Source: Planctomycetota bacterium
Lineage (GTDB): Bacteria; Planctomycetota; PLA2; JAEUHO01
Length of the DNA stretch: 64,000 nucleotides
Assembly (NCBI GenBank): GCA_965223505.1
Contig: CBDCWP010000030.1
Location: 64,001-128,000, forward strand
Direction: 5' to 3'
Shown: positions 4,770 to 44,300 of the stretch, piece after piece
How positions within the stretch are numbered: the first letter of the stretch is position 1
Layout: every line of letters begins with the position of its first letter
Made by a program: the position numbers and the translations under genes
Notes under the pieces: generated by a model
Database searches by the model: none
What the model was told of the DNA's origin: nothing
What the model saw: only the letters and a program-made list of their open reading frames with translations

Positions 4770-5366
4770 TCACGCGTACGGGGCGACGCCCTCGCGCAGA
4801 AGCGCCTGTAGCGCCGTTTCGTGCGTCTCGATCAGCGCGTTCGGCCGCCGGTCGAGCACGACCCGGCCGTCCAGATCCCGGACGACGAACCCCGTGACGC
4901 AGCGCCGGTCCACGTGCACGCTGAAGTCGGTCGCACCCTGGTCGAGCAGCGCCTCGTAGACGGCGAGCCGGTCGCGCTTGGCGGCGAAGACCTCCATCGG
5001 GCCGTCGACGGCGGCGGCCTCCCTCGCCCAGTGCCGCAGCGCGCCCACGTAGTCCTCGGTGTCGGGCAGGGACTGGATCGAGAGTGTGAGTCGCCGCGCG
5101 AAGCGGTCGTAGAGCTGCGTGAACGCTTCGGCACGCAGGGACGCGACCTCGCGCTCCGCCTCCAGGCGCGCGGCGTCCTTCGCCGCCTCGCCGCGCACGC
5201 GACCGAGGTTCTTTGCCGCCTCCGAGAGCTCGCGCACGTGGTCTTCCGCGTCGATCACGAGACGGCGCGCCTCGTTGACGGCCTGATCCTCGGCACGTCG
5301 GCTGCCGCGGTCGGCATCTTCGAGGATGATGTCGACGAGCGCATGGAACGCGGCGTCATGCAACAT
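4770..5366 (-). CDS. V/A-type ATP synthase subunit E-like
   Basis: N-terminal IILEDA coiled coil; C-terminal GFVVRDLDGRVVLDRR resembles the subunit E globular motif; overlaps the subunit I-like gene. Confidence 0.65.
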   Translation of the reverse strand: MLHDAAFHALVDIILEDADRGSRRAEDQAVNEARRLVIDAEDHVRELSEAAKNLGRVRGEAAKDAARLEAEREVASLRAEAFTQLYDRFARRLTLSIQSLPDTEDYVGALRHWAREAAAVDGPMEVFAAKRDRLAVYEALLDQGATDFSVHVDRRCVTGFVVRDLDGRVVLDRRPNALIETHETALQALLREGVAPYA

Positions 5367-7278
5367 GGGTTCCCCTCTCCCGGCTCGGCCCGCGGCGCAC
5401 GCGGCGCCGGAACGGCTCGAACGGCTGCGTGAGCTCGCGTCCCCCCAAAGACGTGTCGTAGGGCACGCCGATCGCCACGTGCGCCGCGTCAGCGACCACG
5501 GCGAGCACCCCCACGACGAGGGCGACCGGTACCACGAGCAGCGCGACGGCGCCGGCGTCGGCCCATGCGGCGAAGCCGTACTCGAACAACATCACCGACG
5601 CGCCCCCGACCGCCACGAGCCGCAGCACGCCGACGAGATCGAGGCAGAAGCGCGTCACGAACGCGCGCGCTCCCTCCAGAACGAACACCGCGACGGCGAC
5701 GAGCGGCACGAGGATCCACGCCCACGCGACCGCCGGTACGGCCTCGCCCACGACCGCCGCCGCGAACCCCGCAATCACCGCGTAGCGCAACGTCGTCAGC
5801 AGCGCCGCGCGCGCACGCGCGGCCCGGCCGCCGCGCACCGCGCGAAGCGCGAGCACGGCGCCGTACAGCGCGAACGCGCCCGCGAGGAGGCCGATCACCG
5901 CGAGCACGCCGGCGAACGGCTGCAAGAGAGCCGGCAACGCGCCGGCGCCGAGGTCGAGCGTGTCCACGACGCCCCACCCCTCACCAAACCACGCCGCGCC
6001 GGCATCGCCGAGCGCGCGGCCGATCAGAAGCCCCGCCGCCAACGCGGCGAGGCCGCCGGCTTGCGCCATGATCGCGGTGTGCCGGCGGGGCGAGCCGCGC
6101 CGGGCACGGACGCCGAGCAACGCGCCCGCGATCATCAGCAGCAGGCCGCCGGCCGCGTCGGCCCAAGCCAGGCCGACGGCGACGGGCGCGAAGACGGCGA
6201 GCACGCTTGCGACGCCGACGTCGCCGAAGCGCGACGGCCGCAGCCCTTCGAGCGCGGCGAACGGAACGGCGGCGACGGTGCGCGGAAGCGTCGGGGCGTC
6301 GTCGGCCTCGGCCAGCGGCCGGATCACGATGTGCTTGCCGAACACCTTCGTCATGTGCTCGGCGAGCGGTTCGCCGTCTTCGCGTCGTACGAACACGCGC
6401 GCGGCAGCGACGTGTTCCGTTGCGGCCAGCCGTCCGCGCGCCTCGCGGCGCCCTTCGGCGTCTTCGAGCGAGTCGAGCAGCTGGCGCGCGCGCGCGCCGT
6501 CTTCGCGTACGCGCAGCGTCAAGGCGGCGCGAGCGGCGCCGACCTCGTGCTGCGCGCGGCTGCGCGCTTCGAGCGCTTCCCGCAGCGCGTCTTCGATCAG
6601 CGCGCCTTGCATCGTGGCGGGGAAATCGAACGCGCGCGCGCCGACCGCTTCGGCGATCTGTTCGACGCCGTCGCTCGTGACGGTCGCGTCCGCGGCGCGC
6701 AGCACGAAGACGTGGCTCTTGTCGCCGTCCCGCCGGAGCGGGTCGAGCCGGGCGCGGCGCAGACGCCGGCCCAGTTGCCGCGCCGCGCGTGGCTCGGTGG
6801 GCAGCGCGAGCGCGCGACCGTTGACGGTCGGCTCGTCGGCGGCCTGGAGGGCCTCGACGCCGGCCAGGACGGCGTCGGCGAACTCGTACGACGCATCGGC
6901 GCGCCGCAGCGCCTCGAGCTCGACGTGGATCCGACCGGCGAGCGTGACGGCCTCGTCGCGCAAGGCGAGCAGGTCGGCCTCCCCGATGCCGCCGGGGGCC
7001 ATCGTCCAGTCGGGGCGCCGGCCGGGCGGCTCGTCGACGGCAGTCGGCGGCAGCACGCGCTCGACCGCCTGGAGTGACCGGCCGGCTTCGCTGCGAATCA
7101 GCTCGATGTCCTGCTCGTGCGCGTCGGGCCGCGGGCGTCCGATGCCCGCCTCGCCCTCGAGCCCGTGCAGCGCGTCGCCAAGATGGCAGGTGCCCAGATC
7201 CTGGAGGGCGGCGAGCCAGTCCTCGACGGACGCGCGCGGGCCGAGGATCTCGTAGTGCTGGAAGGGGGCATCGATCAT
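5356..7278 (-). CDS. V/A-type ATP synthase subunit I-like, degenerate
   Basis: MIDAPFQHYEILGP...LQDLGTCHL N-terminus; DAPTL..PF..., GLAWADAAGGL, VLRLVAVG (essential-Arg helix) and QPFEPF tail follow NtpI order. Confidence 0.75.
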   Translation of the reverse strand: MIDAPFQHYEILGPRASVEDWLAALQDLGTCHLGDALHGLEGEAGIGRPRPDAHEQDIELIRSEAGRSLQAVERVLPPTAVDEPPGRRPDWTMAPGGIGEADLLALRDEAVTLAGRIHVELEALRRADASYEFADAVLAGVEALQAADEPTVNGRALALPTEPRAARQLGRRLRRARLDPLRRDGDKSHVFVLRAADATVTSDGVEQIAEAVGARAFDFPATMQGALIEDALREALEARSRAQHEVGAARAALTLRVREDGARARQLLDSLEDAEGRREARGRLAATEHVAAARVFVRREDGEPLAEHMTKVFGKHIVIRPLAEADDAPTLPRTVAAVPFAALEGLRPSRFGDVGVASVLAVFAPVAVGLAWADAAGGLLLMIAGALLGVRARRGSPRRHTAIMAQAGGLAALAAGLLIGRALGDAGAAWFGEGWGVVDTLDLGAGALPALLQPFAGVLAVIGLLAGAFALYGAVLALRAVRGGRAARARAALLTTLRYAVIAGFAAAVVGEAVPAVAWAWILVPLVAVAVFVLEGARAFVTRFCLDLVGVLRLVAVGGASVMLFEYGFAAWADAGAVALLVVPVALVVGVLAVVADAAHVAIGVPYDTSLGGRELTQPFEPFRRRVRRGPSRERGTHVA

Positions 7279-7658
7279 TCCGCGACGACCTCCGGCGCCT
7301 CGGCGGGTGCGTCGCGCTCGCCGCACAGCAACGCCATGGCGGCGACGAGTAGCTCGTCCATGCGCGACTCCGCGTCGTCGATCCAACGTCGGACGGCGAG
7401 CCGGGCCTCGCTCACGGCGTCGACGCCGGCGGCCTCGACCTGGCGCAGAGCCTCGCGTTCGCCTTCGATGACGATGTCCCGCAGCTTCTGCTCACCCTCC
7501 TCGCGGATGCGCTTGGCCTCGGCGCGGGCCGCCGCCAGACGCGCCTGGGCGTCGCCCTGCGCCCCCTGCAGCCGCTCACGCGCCCAGGCTTCGACGGCGA
7601 GGAACGCAGGCAGGGCGGAGCGCCCCGGTGTGACGGGCGGGAGGTTGGGTCGCGTCAT
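7275..7658 (-). CDS. V/A-type ATP synthase subunit G/H-like coiled-coil protein
   Basis: 127 aa Ala/Glu/Arg helix (ARLAAARAEAKRIREE); ATGA overlap with the subunit I-like gene. Confidence 0.6.
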   Translation of the reverse strand: MTRPNLPPVTPGRSALPAFLAVEAWARERLQGAQGDAQARLAAARAEAKRIREEGEQKLRDIVIEGEREALRQVEAAGVDAVSEARLAVRRWIDDAESRMDELLVAAMALLCGERDAPAEAPEVVAE

Positions 7659-7791
7659 GGACGTGGAGCGTACCGGCGGAGCAGGACAGCGTCGGACCGT
7701 AGCGCGCGGCAGCCGACGAAGGCCCCTTGCTCACCGCGCACCCGCCACGACGGCGATCCGGCCAGGCGCCGTCGAGCGGGACGAGCCGCCG

Positions 7792-8712
7792 CTAGCCGCC
7801 GGTGGCGTTCTTCTTCAGCCAGTCGACGAGCTGCTCGCGGACGGACGCGAACTTGCCGTTGACCTTCACGTCGACAGCCTTCAGCAGCGCCTCGACCTCC
7901 TTGCGCTTGTCGGCCGTGGAGCTGTCGTCGTCCTCGACGGCGAACTCGAAGGCGTAGCCGACGTCCTCGCTGATCGACGCCATGTGCGCGTCGATGTAGG
8001 CCGTCAGGCCCTTGCCGGGCTTCTTCGCGATCTTCAGGACCTCCACGAACGCCTCGAGGGCCTTGCGCCACTCCTCGTCGTCGATCGCCGCGAGGGCGAC
8101 CTCCATGTGCGGGAGCGCTTTTTCGAACTTCTTGAAGGTCAACGCTTCGCCCAGCTCCTTCTGAAGGGCTTCGGTCGCCTTCTGAATGCTCTTCGTGACG
8201 AACTGGTCCTTCTCCTCGATGCGGTGCACCTTGCCGTCGGGCGCGATCAGCCACGAGTTCGGGCAGAGCTCGACGAAGGGCACCACCGGCAGCGTCTCGT
8301 CACGAGAGGCATCGGTCTCGACCGCGATGTTGAGGTGGTCGCGGCACGTCAGACCGGGATAGAGCGGGCAGCGCTTGTTCTCGCCGGTCTGGTTCGCGAC
8401 CTCGATCTCTTCGTGCCCGAGCTCGTTGTGCGCAATCAACACGATCACGCTCTCTTCCGCCCACTTGATGAACGACTTGTTGGTCAGCACCGACCGGTAC
8501 TGGTTCGTGCAGCGGCCTCAGAAGTCCTTGTGACGGCTGAAGAAGATCGGCACGTTGCGAACGCGCGCCTCGACCATCGCCGCTTCGTAGCTCGTCATGT
8601 AGCGCAGGTGTGCGCCCTTCGGGTGCTCCTCCGCGAACGCGCCGCCGGCGAACAGGATCGCCGCCGCGATTCCGAGCCAGCAGACCGGCCCGGTCAGTCT
8701 TCGAATCCGCAT
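7792..8712 (-). CDS. Exported thioredoxin-like selenoprotein (UGRC), 306 aa with Sec65
   Basis: GGAGG RBS, ATG at 8712, signal peptide ending AFA; ...SRHKDF-TGA(8518-8520)-GRCTNQYRSVLTNK continues in frame into ORF 7792..8490; hairpin after the TGA. Confidence 0.85.
8485..8502 (-). promoter_or_regulatory. Putative bacterial SECIS apical hairpin
   Basis: mRNA CAGUACC-GGUC-GGUGCUG, 7-bp stem (one U-G) starting 16 nt after UGA, GU in the loop. Confidence 0.7.
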
Positions 8713-8735
8713 GTGACCTCCCGAGACGCCGGCCG

Positions 8736-9668
8736 TCACTTGGCCTTCGCCTCCTTGATCCACTTCTTGATGTCGTCGACCACCGGTAGGTATCCGCGTT
8801 TGAGACGCTTGCCGACGGCGGACTTGAGCTGACCGGCGGCCTTGATCTTGGCCTCCGCGTCGCCCTCACCCTCCTTGAGCTCCTCGAACGCCTCGACGAT
8901 CGCCTCGTTCAGATCGTCGAGCCGCTCCTTGACGATCTCCTTCATGCCGTCCGGCAGCTTCTTGGTGTCCTTCTCGACGTCCGCGTAGGCGGCCAATGCG
9001 GCCTTCCAGTCCATCGTCTCGATCGCCGCGTCGCCCGCGTCGAGCGATGCCACGTACGCCTTGTACTTCTTCATCGGAAGGTGCTTGAGCTTCAGCTTCT
9101 TCAGCCCGGCCTGGGCCATCTCGATCACCTTCTTCGGCTTCGTCTTGTAGGCGTTCGAGACGGTCTCGACCTCGCCGTTGGGCATGACGAACCAGCTCGT
9201 GGGCGTGCTGACCGGCTTCTTGATTTGCGGCAGGCCGGACGCAGACGTCAGCGCCGCGATCTCGTTGGCGATCCCGCGGTGGTCCTCGCACAGGAGACCG
9301 GGGTACTTCGGGCAGCCTTCGACCTTCTCACCGTTTTCGTCTTCGATCTGCGACGGGTGTTCTTCCGTCTCGTGGGCGATGGCCACGATCATGTTCTCGT
9401 TGGCCCACTCGACGAACCCGCCGTCTTGCAGCACCGAACTGTGCTGCGCCTCGCACGGGCCTCAGTTGTCCTTGTGCCAGACGACGTAGATCACGGCGTT
9501 GCGTGCCCGGGCTTCGTACACCGCGTCCTCGTAGGACTTCGCGTAGCGAAGGTGCGTCTCTTTCTCCTCCTTGGCGAGGCCGCTGCCGAGCGAACCGAAC
9601 ACGGCCGCCGCGGCGACGCAGAACAACGCGCAGGCGAAGCGGCGATGCCATGCAAGACGGTGGCTCAT
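8736..9668 (-). CDS. Exported thioredoxin-like selenoprotein (UGPC), 310 aa with Sec69
   Basis: GGAG RBS, signal peptide; ...VWHKDN-TGA(9462-9464)-GPCEAQHSSVLQDGG continues in frame into ORF 8736..9434; paralog of the downstream gene. Confidence 0.88.
9428..9447 (-). promoter_or_regulatory. Putative bacterial SECIS apical hairpin
   Basis: mRNA GCAGCAC-AGUUCG-GUGCUGC, perfect 7-bp stem starting 15 nt after UGA, GU in the loop. Confidence 0.7.
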
Positions 9669-9813
9669 GAGCGGACTCCGGGCACGAGGATCGCCGATGG
9701 GCGGCGCGGGCGCCAGGGGGCAGCCCCCGCCGGCCCCCGGCAGATAGGACGGTTGTCGCCCGAAGGGGGTTCCATCGGCCGCGGGCGGCCCGCCGAGGCT
9801 CGGTTTCGAGCGC

Positions 9814-11127
9814 CTAGCGCAGCGGGACGTCCTTGAGCACGACTTCGAGCTCCCCGTCCGACTCGCGGTCGAACCAGGTCACCCAGATCGCCTCCGGCTT
9901 GCCGATGCCCGCGCCGTAGGCCCGGCCGGTGAGGTTCAAGGTGCCGTCGGCGCTGTGCGAGCGCCCCCCCATCACGTGCAGCCGCTGTTCACGGCCGCCT
10001 GCCCAGCGCACGAAGATCTGCGCCGTCGTTCGGGCGAGCTGCTTGGGGAGTACGGCCACCAGCTCGACGACCCAGGACCCGGTCTGGTTCTCCACCGGCT
10101 CGAAGGAGCGCAGCTCCACCGACCCTTCGGTGCCGGGCTCGACGTCCTTCCCGTCCTTGGTGCGGCAGCGCGGCAGCTTCTCGATGTCGTCGAACCGGAC
10201 GGTGTGCGCCACATGGCGGATGCGCATCGGGAACTTCACGACGAGCTTCGCGAGCTTCTCGTGAAAGACGTCCGTCGTCGGTTGGAAGGTCACATTGACC
10301 GAGCGCGAGGATTGCATCGGTGAGACGCCGTACGTGACGCGCCCTTTGGTGGTCGCTCGAAACGCGTTTCCTGCGGTGTCCTCGGCCGCGGTCACCGTCG
10401 GCGTGCTGAGCTGCGAGACCGCGACGCTGGGAACCCACCAGACGTCGAGGGTCAACGAGTAGTGCGGCTTGGCCGTGCTGGTGAGCGCGCGCGTGCTGGT
10501 GACCTCGGTGACCCGCACGAGCACGGGTCCGGCCGCCGCCTGCGGCACGACGACGGCCTCCGCATCGCGGTGGACGAGACGCGCGTGCCCGGCGCCGTCG
10601 AACGGCCCTTTCATCGAGAGGTCCGCCCGCTTCAGCAACATGCGCAGCGCTTCGAAGTAGGGCTCGTTCTCGATCTCGCCCCCGCTCTCGGGCGGCGTCC
10701 AGTCGTCGGGCATCTCGAAGCGGCCACCGAACTGACGCCCCAGGTCCTTGAGCGTCGCGTCGGAAGCGGGCAGCGTCACGCGGCCGATCGCCGCCAGGTC
10801 GCCCGGCGCGACCGGCGCGGTCTTCGTCGGCTCGCCGCCGAGCAGCAGGCGCACCGTGCGACGCACCTCCGGGTCCTCGTCGTCGGCGACGGCTTCGAGG
10901 AGGTCGCGCGCCTTCGTGCCATAGCGCTGCAGTCCGTGACGGGCCGTCTGACGCGTCGCGAACGAATCGGAGCGCAGATCCTCGATCCACTGCTTGACGT
11001 GCGTGCGCAGTGCCTCGCCCTGGAGCGCGGGCGGGATCTGCGGCTCGTCGGCCCGCGCGTCCGGTATGCGAACCGGCGCCGAGAGGGCGCACGCCAGGAG
11101 AAACAGAAGTCCGGCGCGGCGGTTCAT
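9814..11127 (-). CDS. Secreted protein with N-terminal HEAT-like repeat
   Basis: Signal peptide MNRRAGLLFLLACAL..ARA; WIEDLRSDSFATRQTA...DEDPEVRRTV HEAT pattern. Confidence 0.7.
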   Translation of the reverse strand: MNRRAGLLFLLACALSAPVRIPDARADEPQIPPALQGEALRTHVKQWIEDLRSDSFATRQTARHGLQRYGTKARDLLEAVADDEDPEVRRTVRLLLGGEPTKTAPVAPGDLAAIGRVTLPASDATLKDLGRQFGGRFEMPDDWTPPESGGEIENEPYFEALRMLLKRADLSMKGPFDGAGHARLVHRDAEAVVVPQAAAGPVLVRVTEVTSTRALTSTAKPHYSLTLDVWWVPSVAVSQLSTPTVTAAEDTAGNAFRATTKGRVTYGVSPMQSSRSVNVTFQPTTDVFHEKLAKLVVKFPMRIRHVAHTVRFDDIEKLPRCRTKDGKDVEPGTEGSVELRSFEPVENQTGSWVVELVAVLPKQLARTTAQIFVRWAGGREQRLHVMGGRSHSADGTLNLTGRAYGAGIGKPEAIWVTWFDRESDGELEVVLKDVPLR

Positions 11128-11143: not shown

Positions 11144-13177
11144 CTAGACGGCGACCTGTTCCTTCTTGTGCCTCGCGATGATGTCGTTGGCCAGGTGCGA
11201 CGGCACCGGGTCGTAGTGGGCGAGCTTGAAGCCGTAGTCGCCCTCACCGGCGGTGAGGGAGCGCAGCTCCGTGCTGTAGTTCATCATCTCGGCGAGCGGC
11301 ACCTCGGCCTTGATCTGCGCCATGTCCTCTTCCTGGTTCATGCCCAGGATGCGGCCGCGGCGGCTGTTCAGGTCGCCGGAGATGTCGCCCATGAAGCGCG
11401 ACGGCACCTCGATCTCGACCTCCATGATCGGCTCGAGCAGAACCGGCCGGGCGGTCTCCACGGCGGCGCGGAACGCCGCGGCCCCCGCGAGCTTGAACGA
11501 GAACTCGTCGCTATCGACGTCGTGGAACTTGCCGAAATGCACGATGGCGCACACGTCGACGAACGGGTAGCCCGCCAGGACCCCCTTCGAGCACTGCTCG
11601 ACGACGCCCTTCTCGACCGCCGGAATGAACTGACGCGGAATCGCGCCGCCGACGACCTCGTCCTTGTACTCGAAGCCCTCGCCGCGTCCCTTGGGCTCGA
11701 CCTTGAGGTGCACCTCGGCGAACTGGCCCCGGCCGCCCGACTGCTTCTTGTGCCGGTGCATGCCCTCACCCTTCGCGGTGATCGTCTCCAGGTACGGGAT
11801 GCGCGGCTGGCGCGTGACGGTCTCGACCTTCTTGCGCGCGAGACGCTTCAGCATGATGTCGACGTGCAGCGCGCTCATGCCGCGCACGACCATCTCGCCG
11901 GTGGATTCCTCGCGCTCGGCGATGAAGGACGCGTCGCCGTCGGCGAGCTTGTGCAGCTCCGGTCCGAGCTTCGCCTCGTCGTTGCGGTTCTTCGGTTCGA
12001 TGGCCAGGGTGACCTTCGGGTACGGCGCCGGGATCGCGGCGAACGTCCAGTCGGCGCTGCCGTCGGTGATCGTGTCGCCGATCTGGACGTCCTCGACCTT
12101 CGCGACCGCGACGAGATCGCCCGCCGACGCGTTGGGGACGGCCTGCATCTCCTTGCCCTGGGTGTCGAGCAGATCGCCGATGCGCTCGGTCTTGCCCGTG
12201 CGGGTCACCACGAACTGCGTCTTGCCCGGCAGGGAGCCGCTCCAAACCCGCAGGTACGACAGCTTGCCGACGTGCGGGTCGATCTGGATCTTCCAGACCT
12301 GCGCGGAGAACGGCCCGTCGGCCTTCACGGCGACGTCGTCGCCGGCCTTGTTGGTCGCCTTGCGCATGACCTCGCCGTGGCGGTTCGTGGCGTGCGGGCA
12401 GTCCTTCGTGATGAAGTCGAGCAGCTTGCGCATGCCCACGCCCTTCTCGGCGGACACGTGCAGGACCGGGACGATGTTGCCCTGGCGCAGCGCGCGCGGG
12501 AACGCGTCGGCGAGCTCCTGCTTGGAGACCTCGCCGGTCTCGAAGTAGCGCTCGAGCAGATCGTCGTCGCACTCGACCACGCGGTCGGTGGCCTGCTGCC
12601 GGTACTCCGCGGCCTGCATCTCGAGGTCGTCGCTCAGGCCTTCGGCAAAGATGTCGTAGACCTCCGAGGCGCTCGAGCCGAACGCGTCCGGCAGGTTCAT
12701 CGGCACGGCGCGCTCGCCCATCGCCGACTGGATCGACGCGTAGAGCTCGTCCGGCACGATGTTCTCGCCCTCGATGCGCGTGATCAGCACCACGCACGCC
12801 AGGCCCTGGTCGCGCGCGTAGCGGAACAGCCGGCGCGTGGCGACGCCGACGCCGTCGTGGGCGTTGACGCAGATGATGGCCGTCTCCGAGGCCGCGAGGC
12901 CGCAGACCGCCTCGCCGACGAAGTCGAGCGCGCCGGGCGTGTCGACGATGTTGACCCGCTTGCCTTCCCACGTGAGGTGCATCGGCGTGGCGATGATCGA
13001 CTGCTGGCGTTCCTTCTCGTCCTCGTCCCAGTCCGAAACCGTGTTCTTCTCCGGCACGCTGCCCTTGCGGGAGACGGCCTTCGCGAGGTGGAGCATCGTC
13101 TCGGCGAGCGTCGTCTTCCCCGCCCCACCGGCGCCGACAAGGGTCACATTGCGTACATCGTCAGGGCTCTTGGCCAT
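11144..13177 (-). CDS. Elongation factor G paralog (EF-G2-like)
   Basis: RNVTLVGAGGAGKTT, DTPGALDF, KKQSGGRGQFA, DVDSDEFSF, LLEPIM; outside any ribosomal operon and lacking canonical AHIDAGKT. Confidence 0.92.
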   Translation of the reverse strand: MAKSPDDVRNVTLVGAGGAGKTTLAETMLHLAKAVSRKGSVPEKNTVSDWDEDEKERQQSIIATPMHLTWEGKRVNIVDTPGALDFVGEAVCGLAASETAIICVNAHDGVGVATRRLFRYARDQGLACVVLITRIEGENIVPDELYASIQSAMGERAVPMNLPDAFGSSASEVYDIFAEGLSDDLEMQAAEYRQQATDRVVECDDDLLERYFETGEVSKQELADAFPRALRQGNIVPVLHVSAEKGVGMRKLLDFITKDCPHATNRHGEVMRKATNKAGDDVAVKADGPFSAQVWKIQIDPHVGKLSYLRVWSGSLPGKTQFVVTRTGKTERIGDLLDTQGKEMQAVPNASAGDLVAVAKVEDVQIGDTITDGSADWTFAAIPAPYPKVTLAIEPKNRNDEAKLGPELHKLADGDASFIAEREESTGEMVVRGMSALHVDIMLKRLARKKVETVTRQPRIPYLETITAKGEGMHRHKKQSGGRGQFAEVHLKVEPKGRGEGFEYKDEVVGGAIPRQFIPAVEKGVVEQCSKGVLAGYPFVDVCAIVHFGKFHDVDSDEFSFKLAGAAAFRAAVETARPVLLEPIMEVEIEVPSRFMGDISGDLNSRRGRILGMNQEEDMAQIKAEVPLAEMMNYSTELRSLTAGEGDYGFKLAHYDPVPSHLANDIIARHKKEQVAV

Positions 13178-13384
13178 AGCGCTCTCCAGCCGCGAATCAG
13201 GGGTCCTGGGGATACCGGCAACGTCGGGAGCGGTCAACCTGTGACAGCCCCGGGCCCCCGATCTTCTGGGGTTTTACGCCGTCTTGCGACCTTTGCGCCC
13301 GTCGGACGGAGGCCGATGTTGGGACGCCCCCGCGGCCCCCCTACACTCGCGCCCGCGGGCGGAGGGGACGCCCGCAGGAGTGTG

Positions 13385-41362: not shown

Positions 41363-44300
41363 TCATTTCTTCTCCCCAACCTCGCTTGTCTTCTCCTTGG
41401 CTTCCTGCGCCCGCCGCCAGGCGGGATGAATGGCGCCGGTCAGCCGCAGGTCGTCGATGATCATCGGGGTCCACGTCAGGATCTGCAGCAGGCCCGTGCC
41501 CTTGCTCATCCGGAGGCCCGCACGCTGCGTGCCGGAACCGACCTTCCGCCACTCGGACCGCTGGATGGTGTACACGTTTTGGAAGGTCGGTTCCGCCACG
41601 CCCTTCGGTTCGTTGGCGACCCAGAGCTCCAGCTTGTCCACGTTGCGCACGATGCGGATGCGCCCGCGGAACGCCGGCGGCAACGCGAACAGCTCGGGCT
41701 TGAGGCTGCCGTCGAGCGGGTCGGTCTGCCTGCTCCAGCGCTCGAAGTGCCGGCCTTGGTGCTTGTCTTGCCAGTGCCACTTGTCGCCGTTCCACAACTT
41801 GCCGAACCCCGGGCCGTCGTGATAGCCGATTCCGCGGCCGCGGCCGTAGTAGTCCACCAGCGTCTTGCCGTCCTTCCCGAGCTGCTCGAGCGAGAGCGGG
41901 ATGCGCCAGGCGGGATGGAAGTTCGGGTCGGCCGAGACGATTGCGAGTTGCACGCCGTCGATGTCGAACGCGAGCACCACCGAGCCGCCGAGAAGGTTGA
42001 CCGAAAACTCCAGGGAGATCTCGTAGCCCGGATCGAACATCGACTCGATCGACAACGGACGGCCTCGCCGAAGGCCCGGCTCGCCGGCGAGCAGGTGCAG
42101 GTAGCGCTCGGTCACCGGATCGGGCGACACGACCGCGCCGGCCTCGAGCTCGAGCCGCCCGAGCACGTGCTTGAAGTTCTTCATCTGCTCGGCGTCGTCG
42201 AAATTGACCAGGATCTCGACCCGCTTCTTGCCGTCGAGTGCCGGGGGTGCGGCCTTGGGAATGAAGCCCCGCAACCACAGCGCGAGCTTGTTGTTCTCCA
42301 GCTCCGCGTTGCATTGGCGCAGCAGCTGTTCTGCGCTCTCTCGGAACTTCTCCTTCGCTTCGGTCTCGAAGGGGTCGTCCAGGAACGCCTCGAACTTCCG
42401 CTTGGCGGTGTACCAGGAGTCTTCGCCGTGCAGCGCCTTTCCGGCGCGATAGTTGTCGAACGCCAGGCTCTCACGTTCGTCCTGAAGCCCGCGCAGCCTC
42501 TGGTAGTTGCGGTCGACGTACTTCGACCAGACGCCGAGATAGTCCGCTTTGGCCATCGCCGCCTGGATCCTGCCATAGTCCCGGAGCGCCGGGCGCAGGT
42601 CCTTCGCAGCGGCGTCGACCGGCTCGACCAGCGCGACGTCGATGATCAGGAGGGACTGTTTGTCGATGGGCCGCTTCGTCGCCCAGTTGCGCAGCTGTTG
42701 GAGCGGGAAGTCGCGTTCCAGCTCGAAGGTCTGGGTGCTCTTGGATGAGCCGCGTCCCCAGGTCGCGACGACGGTCCGGTCGTCGCCGCCGACGGACTGA
42801 ACGCGAAACTTCTGGACCGTGATCACGCTGCCGTTCGGCAGCCGTCGCTTCACGTCGGACGGCTCCGCATCGACCTGCGTCTTGACGTACTCGAATGCGG
42901 CGGCGAACACCTGCTCGAGCGCGTCGGACGCGGTACTCAGCTGATCGATCAACGCGCGGCGCGGCCAGGCGTTGGGGTCGTCGCTCGCGCGCTGCACCGA
43001 ACGCTCGATGCCATCGCGGTCCCCGGCTCGCAAGGCCTCCAAGACGTCACTCAACGTCCGCTCGAAGAGCGACTCCGCCGACTGAACGGCGATCTTGTGG
43101 CGGCTGAGCAGGCCGCTGAGCCGCACCTTCGCCTCGAACGCCTCCTCGGGATACATGCCCCAGCGCTCGAGGTCGCGGATGAACTTCTCGAGCATGTCGC
43201 GGGCCTCGCTCACCGCGTGGTCGGCATGCTTCTCCTCGAGCCGATCGATGTCCTGCTTGCGATCGCTCCACTGCGCTCGGAACTGGTCGTCGACGTCCCG
43301 CTCCAGCTTGTTCGTGATGCGCGTAACGTGGCCGGTGCGCTCGTCGCGCGCGTCGAGCGTCTCCAGCTTGCGCCAGTGAACGTGCGGTCCCCACAAGGCG
43401 CGGACCACCCTGCGCAGCGCCGTCACGTCGTCGAGAAGATCGGCGCGCAGCTTTCCGGCCTGATACGCGTCGAACGCGCGCTTGACGTGATCGGGCGTGT
43501 ACGCCTCGAGGAGTCGCTCGACCTCTCGTTCGATGTCACGCGCGGCCTTGGCAAGGGCCCTGGCGGTGCGCCGGTGGGTATCGAGCTCCGCGCGGGGTTC
43601 GGGCAGCCTGGGCGTGATGAACTCGTCGTTCAAAATGCCATCATCTTTGCTGGCGAGGCTCGTCCAGATCGCGACGAACTCCGCGAGATTGGAGGCGCCC
43701 CGGCTCTCGGCGCGTCGTACGAGTCCGCGCCAGGTGATGATCGAGTTGTACCGGATCCGCTCCTCGAGCTTGGCACTCGCAGAGAGCACCGGCCCCTGGG
43801 GCCGGTGTTGGACTTGATGCTCCAGACAGCGCTTCAGTGCGGAGTTGAACTTGAACTTGCCGAGCAGGTCATTGCACTCCGCCTCGATCTTGGCAAAGAG
43901 CTGGAATTGCCGCTGTAGCCCTTCGAGCTCTTTGATGCGTTCCTCGAGCTGCTGCGTATCCGGGGCGGAGATGCCGTGCTCGCTCTTGATCTCCTGGATC
44001 CGACGAAGCGCCCGACGGGCGTCGTCAAGCTTGCGATCGATCTCGGCCGCCGAATCGTCGTTCTCCGCCTCCGCGAGCTCGGCGGCAGGCTCTTGTATGT
44101 CCTGCGCGGTCCGGTGAGCGTCCTGCTTCTCGAAGTGGTCTTGCAGCATCGCCGCTCCGAGGCCGGCAATCAGGAGCGTGACCGCCGTAATGCCCGCGAT
44201 ACGCATGCGCTTCTTGTTGCGCCGGCGCAGCAGAAACGCTTCCCAGTTCCCCTGGAACCCTTCGGGGATGATCGATCGTCCGCCGACGATCTCGTCCACG

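Follow-up and report, generated by a model that had tools for sequence, protein, structure and literature searches.

What is encoded by four short open reading frames (ORFs) that follow one another on the minus strand of a planctomycetal contig? They lie at positions 7792-9668 of the window, by which we mean the whole stretch of 64,000 nucleotides analysed here (positions 64,001 to 128,000 of contig CBDCWP010000030.1, assembly GCA_965223505.1, Planctomycetota bacterium). A first-pass annotation, made from the sequence alone, had suggested that they are two tandem selenoprotein genes, each broken by a TGA that is read as selenocysteine (Sec, U). This suggestion is borne out: the four frames are two neighbouring read-through genes, A and B, of 310 and 306 residues, with one in-frame TGA each. 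The best explanation as a whole, to which we give a probability of roughly 0.85, is that A and B are paralogous genes, decoded by SelB and tRNA-Sec, for exported UxxC oxidoreductases of the Thioredoxin_7 type with an added helical domain. On comparative evidence A and B are almost certainly genuine selenoprotein genes; that their products are exported thiol-disulfide oxidoreductases is a reading that we favour with some reserve.

The structure of the locus is simple once the TGAs are read through (Table 1). In gene A, an ORF of 68 codons ending in ...VVWHKDN stops at a TGA and the same frame runs on as GPCEAQHSSVL into a second ORF of 232 codons; in gene B, an ORF of 81 codons ends in ...FSRHKDF at a TGA and its frame continues as GRCTNQYRSVL into the last ORF. 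Over 293 residues the two products share 34% identity (E 3e-45), and their TGAs align together, at the homologous position that had been noticed at first sight, giving UGPC and UGRC; similarity of this degree with aligned TGAs is far beyond chance. For gene B, an upstream GTG at 8763 is a possible alternative start, which gives a protein of 323 residues; the ATG adopted here lies 23 nt past the stop of A and agrees with the N-termini of orthologues. Gene A itself ends at an ordinary TGA stop, where its orthologues have TAG or TGA; TGA is therefore not reassigned genome-wide, and a Sec reading applies only in context.

The first body of evidence comes from homologues. A six-frame search covered 29 genomes of the window's taxonomic family and found homologues in 27 of them, nearly all of the strong matches containing exactly one in-frame TGA. 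In 33 sequences from 23 of these genomes the TGA occupies a single column (U-G/N/K/S-x-C), with identity to A down to about 24% and with conserved sequence on both flanks, and four distant homologues have TGC at that column (CGRC, CGPC, CGQC). A profile search in a sample of 301 Planctomycetota genomes gave a match at E <= 1e-10 in 86, and a locus search with a narrower family alignment found 13 loci, each in a metagenome-assembled genome of the Planctomycetota. Forty regions, taken from 36 genomes that do not belong to the window's family, were then picked from rows listing '1 TGA', stop-free rows being left out, and in this chosen, non-random sample the TGA stands at the same column in 43 of 43 homologues. 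Pooled, the column holds TGA in 76 sequences from 59 genomes. These figures bear directly on the simplest alternative, four separate or defunct ORFs whose TGAs are real stops, errors of sequencing or lesions of pseudogenes. In its favour, gene callers do split such genes, as the first-pass annotation expected, and the database entries of relatives are fragments of about 230 residues; a TGA that keeps its column over so wide a range of divergence, between conserved flanks and with Cys in its place elsewhere, argues strongly against that alternative.

The same picture is obtained from predicted proteins. Among 1.84 billion representative proteins, a profile search returned 1480 matches at E <= 0.001, 322 of them at <= 1e-10 and 51 at <= 1e-30, and the best 149 of the 1480 were classified. 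Of these, 72 begin right behind the Sec column, as gene calls that restart after a TGA would do; 34 are full-length with CxxC, 12 have the second Cys only, 14 have neither Cys and 17 are other fragments. In the public protein collection the Sec forms that were found are the fragments just mentioned, without a Pfam domain and mostly unnamed, the few names being 'hypothetical protein'; the entries of Cys forms have PF13899 assigned to them, under the names 'hypothetical protein' or 'Thioredoxin-like'. The full-length Cys forms have CGRC, CGAC, CPPC or CGQC at the homologous site, so that the pairing of Cys with TGA, proposed at the outset as a check, holds. The close ones read HKDE-CGRC, QKDE-CGRC, LKDN-CGAC and HKDG-CGRC. 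In a quick tree (a careful tree search did not finish), three close Cys forms group within the B clade and a fourth within the A clade, a nesting which indicates that Sec and Cys have been exchanged repeatedly within the family. The A and B types form separate clades, with approximate likelihood-ratio test (aLRT) values of 91 and 93, and the duplication would therefore be old.

Two observations on Cys-form homologues are added here. One with CGRC (locus L030, on contig C4 of another genome, 217692-218548) is split over two frames and may be frameshifted or a pseudogene; it keeps five of the seven pairs of the hairpin described below. In the distant CGQC members P0127, P0134, P0147 and P0153 the family part is the C-terminus of proteins of 466-553 residues, whose N-terminal part, judged by eye, resembles formylglycine-generating (sulfatase-modifying) enzymes.

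A second body of evidence is carried by the RNA. Behind each TGA stands a hairpin that satisfies the bacterial model of the Sec insertion sequence (SECIS) as published in section 5 of PMC13188914: an apical loop of 3-9 nt, a stem of 4-16 bp, a G among the first two nucleotides of the loop, a UGA-to-loop distance of 16-37 nt and a minimum free energy (MFE) at or below -7.5 kcal/mol. No shuffle folded as well as the hairpin (0/200 for A, 0/200 for B). RNAalifold finds the same helix across the 33 Sec sequences, in which 90% of the cells of the 7-bp helix are paired, against 17-50% in slid controls. Three of the seven pairs have changed on both sides (C-G to U-A in nine sequences, plus one G-C and one A-U), and the covariation score is reached by 0/500 shuffles, a count that is no probability because the sequences share ancestry. 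One compensatory pair joins a His-to-Tyr codon change with a synonymous Val codon change, a combination that selection on the protein would hardly explain. For the 33 Sec forms the mean MFE of the 18-nt core is -8.9 kcal/mol, with 25 at or below -7.5; for the four Cys forms it is -2.05, with 0/4 reaching that limit. Other subfamilies have a hairpin at the same distance from the TGA with quite different stem sequences. The hairpin falls within the codons of Q-H/Y-R-S-V-L, a peptide that is nearly fixed in Sec forms and that varies in Cys forms (RAVL, SAVL, RSLL, ASVF). An Rfam scan of 7700-9800 gave chance-level matches only and no SECIS family, and a short DNA search with the hairpin region of gene A found its orthologues again and nothing else. 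A covarying hairpin is a further point against reading the TGAs as stops.

Moreover, the genome is equipped to decode Sec. The assembly that holds the window (5.15 Mb, 67% G+C, 44 contigs) encodes all four components whose presence the first-pass annotation had named as a check: tRNA-Sec with anticodon tca, selA (437 bits), selB (winged-helix domain, 56.6 bits) and selD (338 bits), which adjoins selA and is broken by one in-frame TGA, as in Sec-containing SelD genes. Sequencing error had also been raised there, and the contigs of three sequencing runs reproduce the region without a variant at either TGA. Finally, in the structural model discussed below, a split at the TGA would halve a thioredoxin fold. 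True stops, errors or lesions thus keep a very small probability, and we proceed with A and B as selenoprotein genes.

Other Sec-related features of this genome were observed in passing. The selA-selD pair lies on contig C8 (37088-39232), the TGA of selD being in the context GAGG-U-AAKVD; the hairpin behind it differs in sequence from those of A and B and has a larger loop. A further candidate exported selenoprotein is located on the plus strand of contig C5 (TGA 43516-43518). It has a signal-like start, the context ...SQDGGW-U-PAAEVL..., a GGUC-loop hairpin behind the TGA and a long helical C-terminus, and it matches Thioredox_DsbH and TPR weakly. A homologue from another genome of the taxonomic family likewise has one TGA within the match.

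Which kind of protein is encoded was approached through profiles and structure. In Pfam, neither A nor B has a match above cut-off: Thioredoxin_7 (PF13899) gives 26.5 bits for A and 24.1 for B against a gathering cut-off of 27, and the remaining matches are far weaker (AhpC-TSA E 0.0086, 16.5 bits against 26; Thioredoxin_2 E 0.077; TPR_2, in B only, E 0.15). NCBIfam release 20.0 gave no relevant match to A or B at E <= 1. Full-length Cys homologues have a precomputed assignment to PF13899. An AlphaFold2 model of A built from 30 homologues has a mean predicted local distance difference test (pLDDT) of 90.2 and a predicted template-modelling score (pTM) of 0.83, and begins with an N-terminus of low confidence that contains a hydrophobic helix; a thioredoxin fold comes next, and then helices from residue 178 to the end. 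The features by which a thioredoxin fold is recognised are all found in it, namely the beta-alpha-beta core, the CxxC-type motif at a helix start and the Pro before a late strand: strand 59-64 is followed by U69, which opens helix 70-80, and P156 precedes strand 157-161.

Relatives of this fold were sought by structure and by sequence. With the model of A, Foldseek returned thioredoxin-fold proteins only, namely 3f9u (an exported cytochrome-c-biogenesis-related domain), DsbH, AGR2, DsbD-gamma and ERp19. A structure search independent of Foldseek gave DsbH (Z 11.8, root-mean-square deviation (rmsd) 8.4 over 138 residues) and AGR3 (Z 11.2, rmsd 2.6 over 111). In a profile search of PDB sequences DsbH (E 6e-4) and AGR2 (E 2e-3) lead, followed by TXNDC12/ERp19 (0.06), and HHLDECPHS of AGR2 is aligned to the family's fHkdkCgrC. 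By model and sequence, A and B are thus predicted to be distant relatives of the Thioredoxin_7 proteins, of the DsbH/AGR/ERp18 type. The first-pass description as thioredoxin-like proteins with a helical C-terminal domain fits the confident model, which contains both parts; the family, left unplaced there, receives here this distant placement. Modelled alone, the C-terminal domain of A forms six helices with a pLDDT of 93.5. The search gave it no specific fold relative: designed or generic alpha-repeat proteins were the only matches, the best with Z 9.1, below what is meaningful for helical folds.

In A, residues 1-31 are mostly modelled with pLDDT < 50. Read by eye, the N-termini of the 30 aligned homologues start with one or two basic residues, continue with a hydrophobic segment and close rich in Ala, and are thus signal-like, that is, putative secretory (Sec-type) signal peptides. 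In the mechanism that we propose, SelB and tRNA-Sec, together with the intragenic hairpin (loop 21-22 nt past the UGA), would direct the insertion of Sec at codons 69 (A) and 65 (B), and the products would be exported. Sec would act as the nucleophile, attacking a disulfide of the substrate or some other sulfur or selenium species in oxidised form, and Cys72 would resolve the selenenylsulfide so formed. Re-reduction would probably occur via a membrane electron transporter of the CcdA/DsbD type, and the helical domain would probably bind the substrate or a partner. The genome contains two DsbD_TM-family genes, which could carry electrons to the periplasm.

A different chemistry can be imagined for real selenoproteins of this kind, namely that they are periplasmic peroxidases or antioxidant enzymes, reducing peroxide or sulfoxide by means of Sec. 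Sec is typical of peroxide-reducing enzymes (PMC13188914, section 7), and the weak AhpC-TSA match points the same way; however, its score is far under the cut-off, DsbH, AGR and thioredoxins are the best structural matches while peroxiredoxins appear at Foldseek ranks 30 and 49, and U-x-x-C is the spacing of dithiol exchange, as opposed to the T-x-x-U of Sec-peroxiredoxins in Table 1 of the same review. We regard a peroxidase as improbable.

More weight must be given to a second group of conserved residues. In the branch to which A and B belong, conservation is not limited to H65, U69, C72 and P156 and includes H99, H104, C119, Y122, G124, C127 and H130; in the model of A the His and Cys residues among the latter extend from the end of strand 93-98 to where helix 127-138 starts. 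Of the 26 full-length representatives without a complete CxxC (among the best 149 of 1480), 22 retain the C-x7-C-x2-H part, and its role is therefore independent of the Sec site. Two identities may be considered for the cluster, a structural disulfide and a metal site. Metal binding on a thioredoxin scaffold has a precedent in the Sco proteins. A and B, still as real selenoproteins, might accordingly be periplasmic metallochaperones or seleno-metalloenzymes rather than disulfide oxidoreductases, with Sec, Cys72 and His65 and/or H99, H104, C119, C127 and H130 binding Cu, Zn or another metal. This would suit five conserved His and Cys residues beside the active-site region and a C-C-H part that outlasts the CxxC, as well as an H65 that shows no variation among the 30 aligned proteins, each of them with both active-site positions, and that is absent from several representatives without CxxC. 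On the other hand, the sequence and fold searches gave no match to a known metal-binding thioredoxin-fold family, the large HGFYU(G/P)PCWGMH subfamily wholly lacks the cluster, and C119 and C127 could equally form a structural disulfide; ERp18 has a disulfide in the corresponding stretch. A metal-centred function is in our opinion unlikely, though less so than a peroxidase. Equally tentative is a broader idea, in which the exported selenoproteins form a family that spans the Planctomycetota and is so far uncatalogued, and in which the Sec site of the A/B branch works beside a second centre, metal or redox; the protein would then be a periplasmic seleno-(metallo)enzyme of a new type, equipped with a helical domain for substrate binding, and more than a further Sec-thioredoxin.

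The preferred reading, exported Sec oxidoreductases of the Thioredoxin_7 type, has to be set against several points that weigh on the other side. A simple oxidoreductase model does not account for the H/H/C/C/H cluster, which is kept even where CxxC is missing and which could point to a metal site. The Thioredoxin_7 scores of both proteins fall just short of the Pfam cut-off, and all Foldseek E-values are > 1e-3. The hairpin of gene A has a variant loop, AGUUCG, and one pair broken relative to the family consensus. The three sequencing runs come from one study, possibly the source of the assembly, and are hence non-independent. Sec is very probably incorporated at both TGAs, a prediction drawn from comparative and genomic evidence; export is proposed from N-termini judged by eye, and redox direction, substrates, electron donor and the role of the His/Cys cluster are inferred.

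Table 1. Features of the locus and its surroundings, in window coordinates.
Feature	Position	Strand	Remarks
Gene A	8736..9668	-	310 codons; ATG 9668; Sec codon 69; own stop TGA 8738-8736; active site U-G-P-C
Upstream ORF of A	9462..9668	-	stop TGA 9464-9462
Downstream ORF of A	8736..9434	-
Signal-peptide-like N-terminus of A	9573..9668	-	residues 1-32; basic start, hydrophobic stretch, ...SGLA / KEEKE; read by eye
Thioredoxin-fold domain of A	9144..9551	-	about residues 40-175; H65, U69, C72, invariant P156 before beta-strand
Sec-UGA codon of A	9462..9464	-	residue 69
SECIS hairpin of A	9428..9447	-	GCAGCAC-AGUUCG-GUGCUGC; 7-bp stem, 6-nt loop, 21 nt UGA-to-loop, -11.3 kcal/mol
Second His/Cys cluster of A	9279..9374	-	H99, H104, C119, C127, H130; H-x4-H...C-x7-C-x2-H; at least 90% conserved (30 aligned homologues)
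C-terminal six-helix domain of A	8739..9143	-	residues 176-310; from model
Gene B	7792..8712	-	306 codons, paralogue of A; ATG 8712; Sec codon 65; stop TAG 7794-7792; active site U-G-R-C
Upstream ORF of B	8518..8763	-	stop TGA 8520-8518
Downstream ORF of B	7792..8490	-
Sec-UGA codon of B	8518..8520	-	from column alignment of homologues
SECIS hairpin of B	8485..8502	-	CAGUACC-GGUC-GGUGCUG; 7-bp stem, 4-nt loop, 22 nt UGA-to-loop, -9.1 kcal/mol
Conserved upstream neighbour	9814..11127	-	437 aa; signal-like start; weak HEAT_2 match, E 2.6e-4
Elongation factor G (EF-G) paralogue	11147-13237	-	NF009381, 777 bits; ends 17 nt before start of 437-aa gene
Three ORFs downstream of gene B	4773-7658	-	faint V-type ATPase subunit matches

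The surroundings of the two genes are conserved as a syntenic block, which is not evidence of shared function. A and B types are adjacent in six of six genomes of one related genus; in other genomes the types are apart or the B type occurs only. By tblastn, the 437-residue upstream neighbour is found at 23 loci (16 distinct sequences, 29-43% identity), beside the selenoprotein gene within these short loci. The EF-G paralogue keeps its upstream position in several related loci. The three ORFs downstream of gene B have G/H-like (E 1.4e-3), subunit I (E 5e-5, 21.9 bits against a cut-off of 777) and E-like (E 0.016) matches, and may form a very divergent V/A-type ATPase cluster, syntenic in relatives. 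An ATP-binding cassette (ABC) transporter is also among the neighbouring genes. None of these neighbours, whether EF-G paralogue, transporter or V-type ATPase-like cluster, gave a functional clue.

Members of the family are frequent among the sampled genomes of Planctomycetota, and annotation splits them wherever the Sec form occurs. Its recognition would mend many annotations in the phylum, add a family to the prokaryotic selenoproteome and widen the known selenium dependence of Planctomycetota. It is also a clear case of a SECIS element that constrains the peptide it encodes, the residues Q-H/Y-R-S-V-L being free to vary in the Cys forms. Two biological questions are raised, namely the task of an exported Sec oxidoreductase in the planctomycetal periplasm and the purpose of the His/Cys cluster.

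Among known systems, the Thioredoxin_7 (PF13899) group, which comprises chlamydial DsbH (PDB 2ju5), human AGR2/AGR3 and TXNDC12/ERp18-ERp19 (1sen, 2k8v), stands nearest. It has the thioredoxin fold in common with A and B, gives their best sequence matches among solved structures and shares the motif H-x-D-x-[C/U]-x-x-[C/S]. DsbH, AGR2/AGR3 and ERp18-ERp19 act outside the cytoplasm, in the periplasm or the endoplasmic reticulum. Unlike this group, A and B have Sec in place of the first Cys, the H/H/C/C/H cluster, a helical domain of about 135 residues and Pfam scores below the cut-off. The two-part architecture of A, a thioredoxin domain with a C-terminal helical domain, recalls proteins of the YbbN/CnoX type (PDB 3qdn), in which the second part is TPR-like; 3qdn is the only match whose alignment spans the two parts (residues 40-310 of the model), and a weak one (Z 8.5, rmsd 10.3 over 190 residues). 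CnoX differs from A and B in being cytoplasmic, and is not known to contain Sec.

As for selenoproteins, a full-text literature search on those of Planctomycetota and on selenocysteine in Thioredoxin_7/DsbH-type proteins returned nothing on the A/B family. Candidates for split selenoproteins in two further Planctomycetes appear in Table S9 of PMC4807772, among them one termed 'hypothetical' and two that resemble thiol-disulfide isomerases; sequences are not given there, and an overlap with the A/B family is possible. A 2026 review (PMC13188914) tabulates 119 prokaryotic selenoprotein families, and in the available part of its table no entry matches A or B or joins UxxC with Thioredoxin_7 and a helical domain. 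This review and that of 2022 (PMC9312934), in the parts available, have one Thioredoxin_7 selenoprotein, Trx7/PDZ (NF041199; pfam13899; GOS metagenome), which resembles A and B in its Thioredoxin_7 assignment and differs in having CxxU and a PDZ domain, whereas A and B have UxxC and match neither PDZ nor NF041199. The bacterial thioredoxin-fold UxxC selenoproteins catalogued in Table 1 of PMC13188914 include Sec-thioredoxin, the thiol:disulfide interchange protein PF13098, TlpA-like cd02966, DsbA-like, DsbG-like, the Redoxin family, SaoT and the HUIPC-motif protein. The domains that define the TlpA-like, Redoxin and AhpC-TSA members are not reached by A and B, AhpC-TSA remaining below its cut-off as given above. 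Most families in that table cite an NCBIfam entry, and A and B differ from them in matching none. With the catalogued UxxC families A and B share Sec for the attacking Cys of CxxC, the thioredoxin fold, an intragenic SECIS and Cys homologues. Thioredoxin-fold UxxC selenoproteins are the commonest predicted class, and A and B represent a new family of this familiar kind, set apart from its other members by the comparison with the catalogue table and with NCBIfam.

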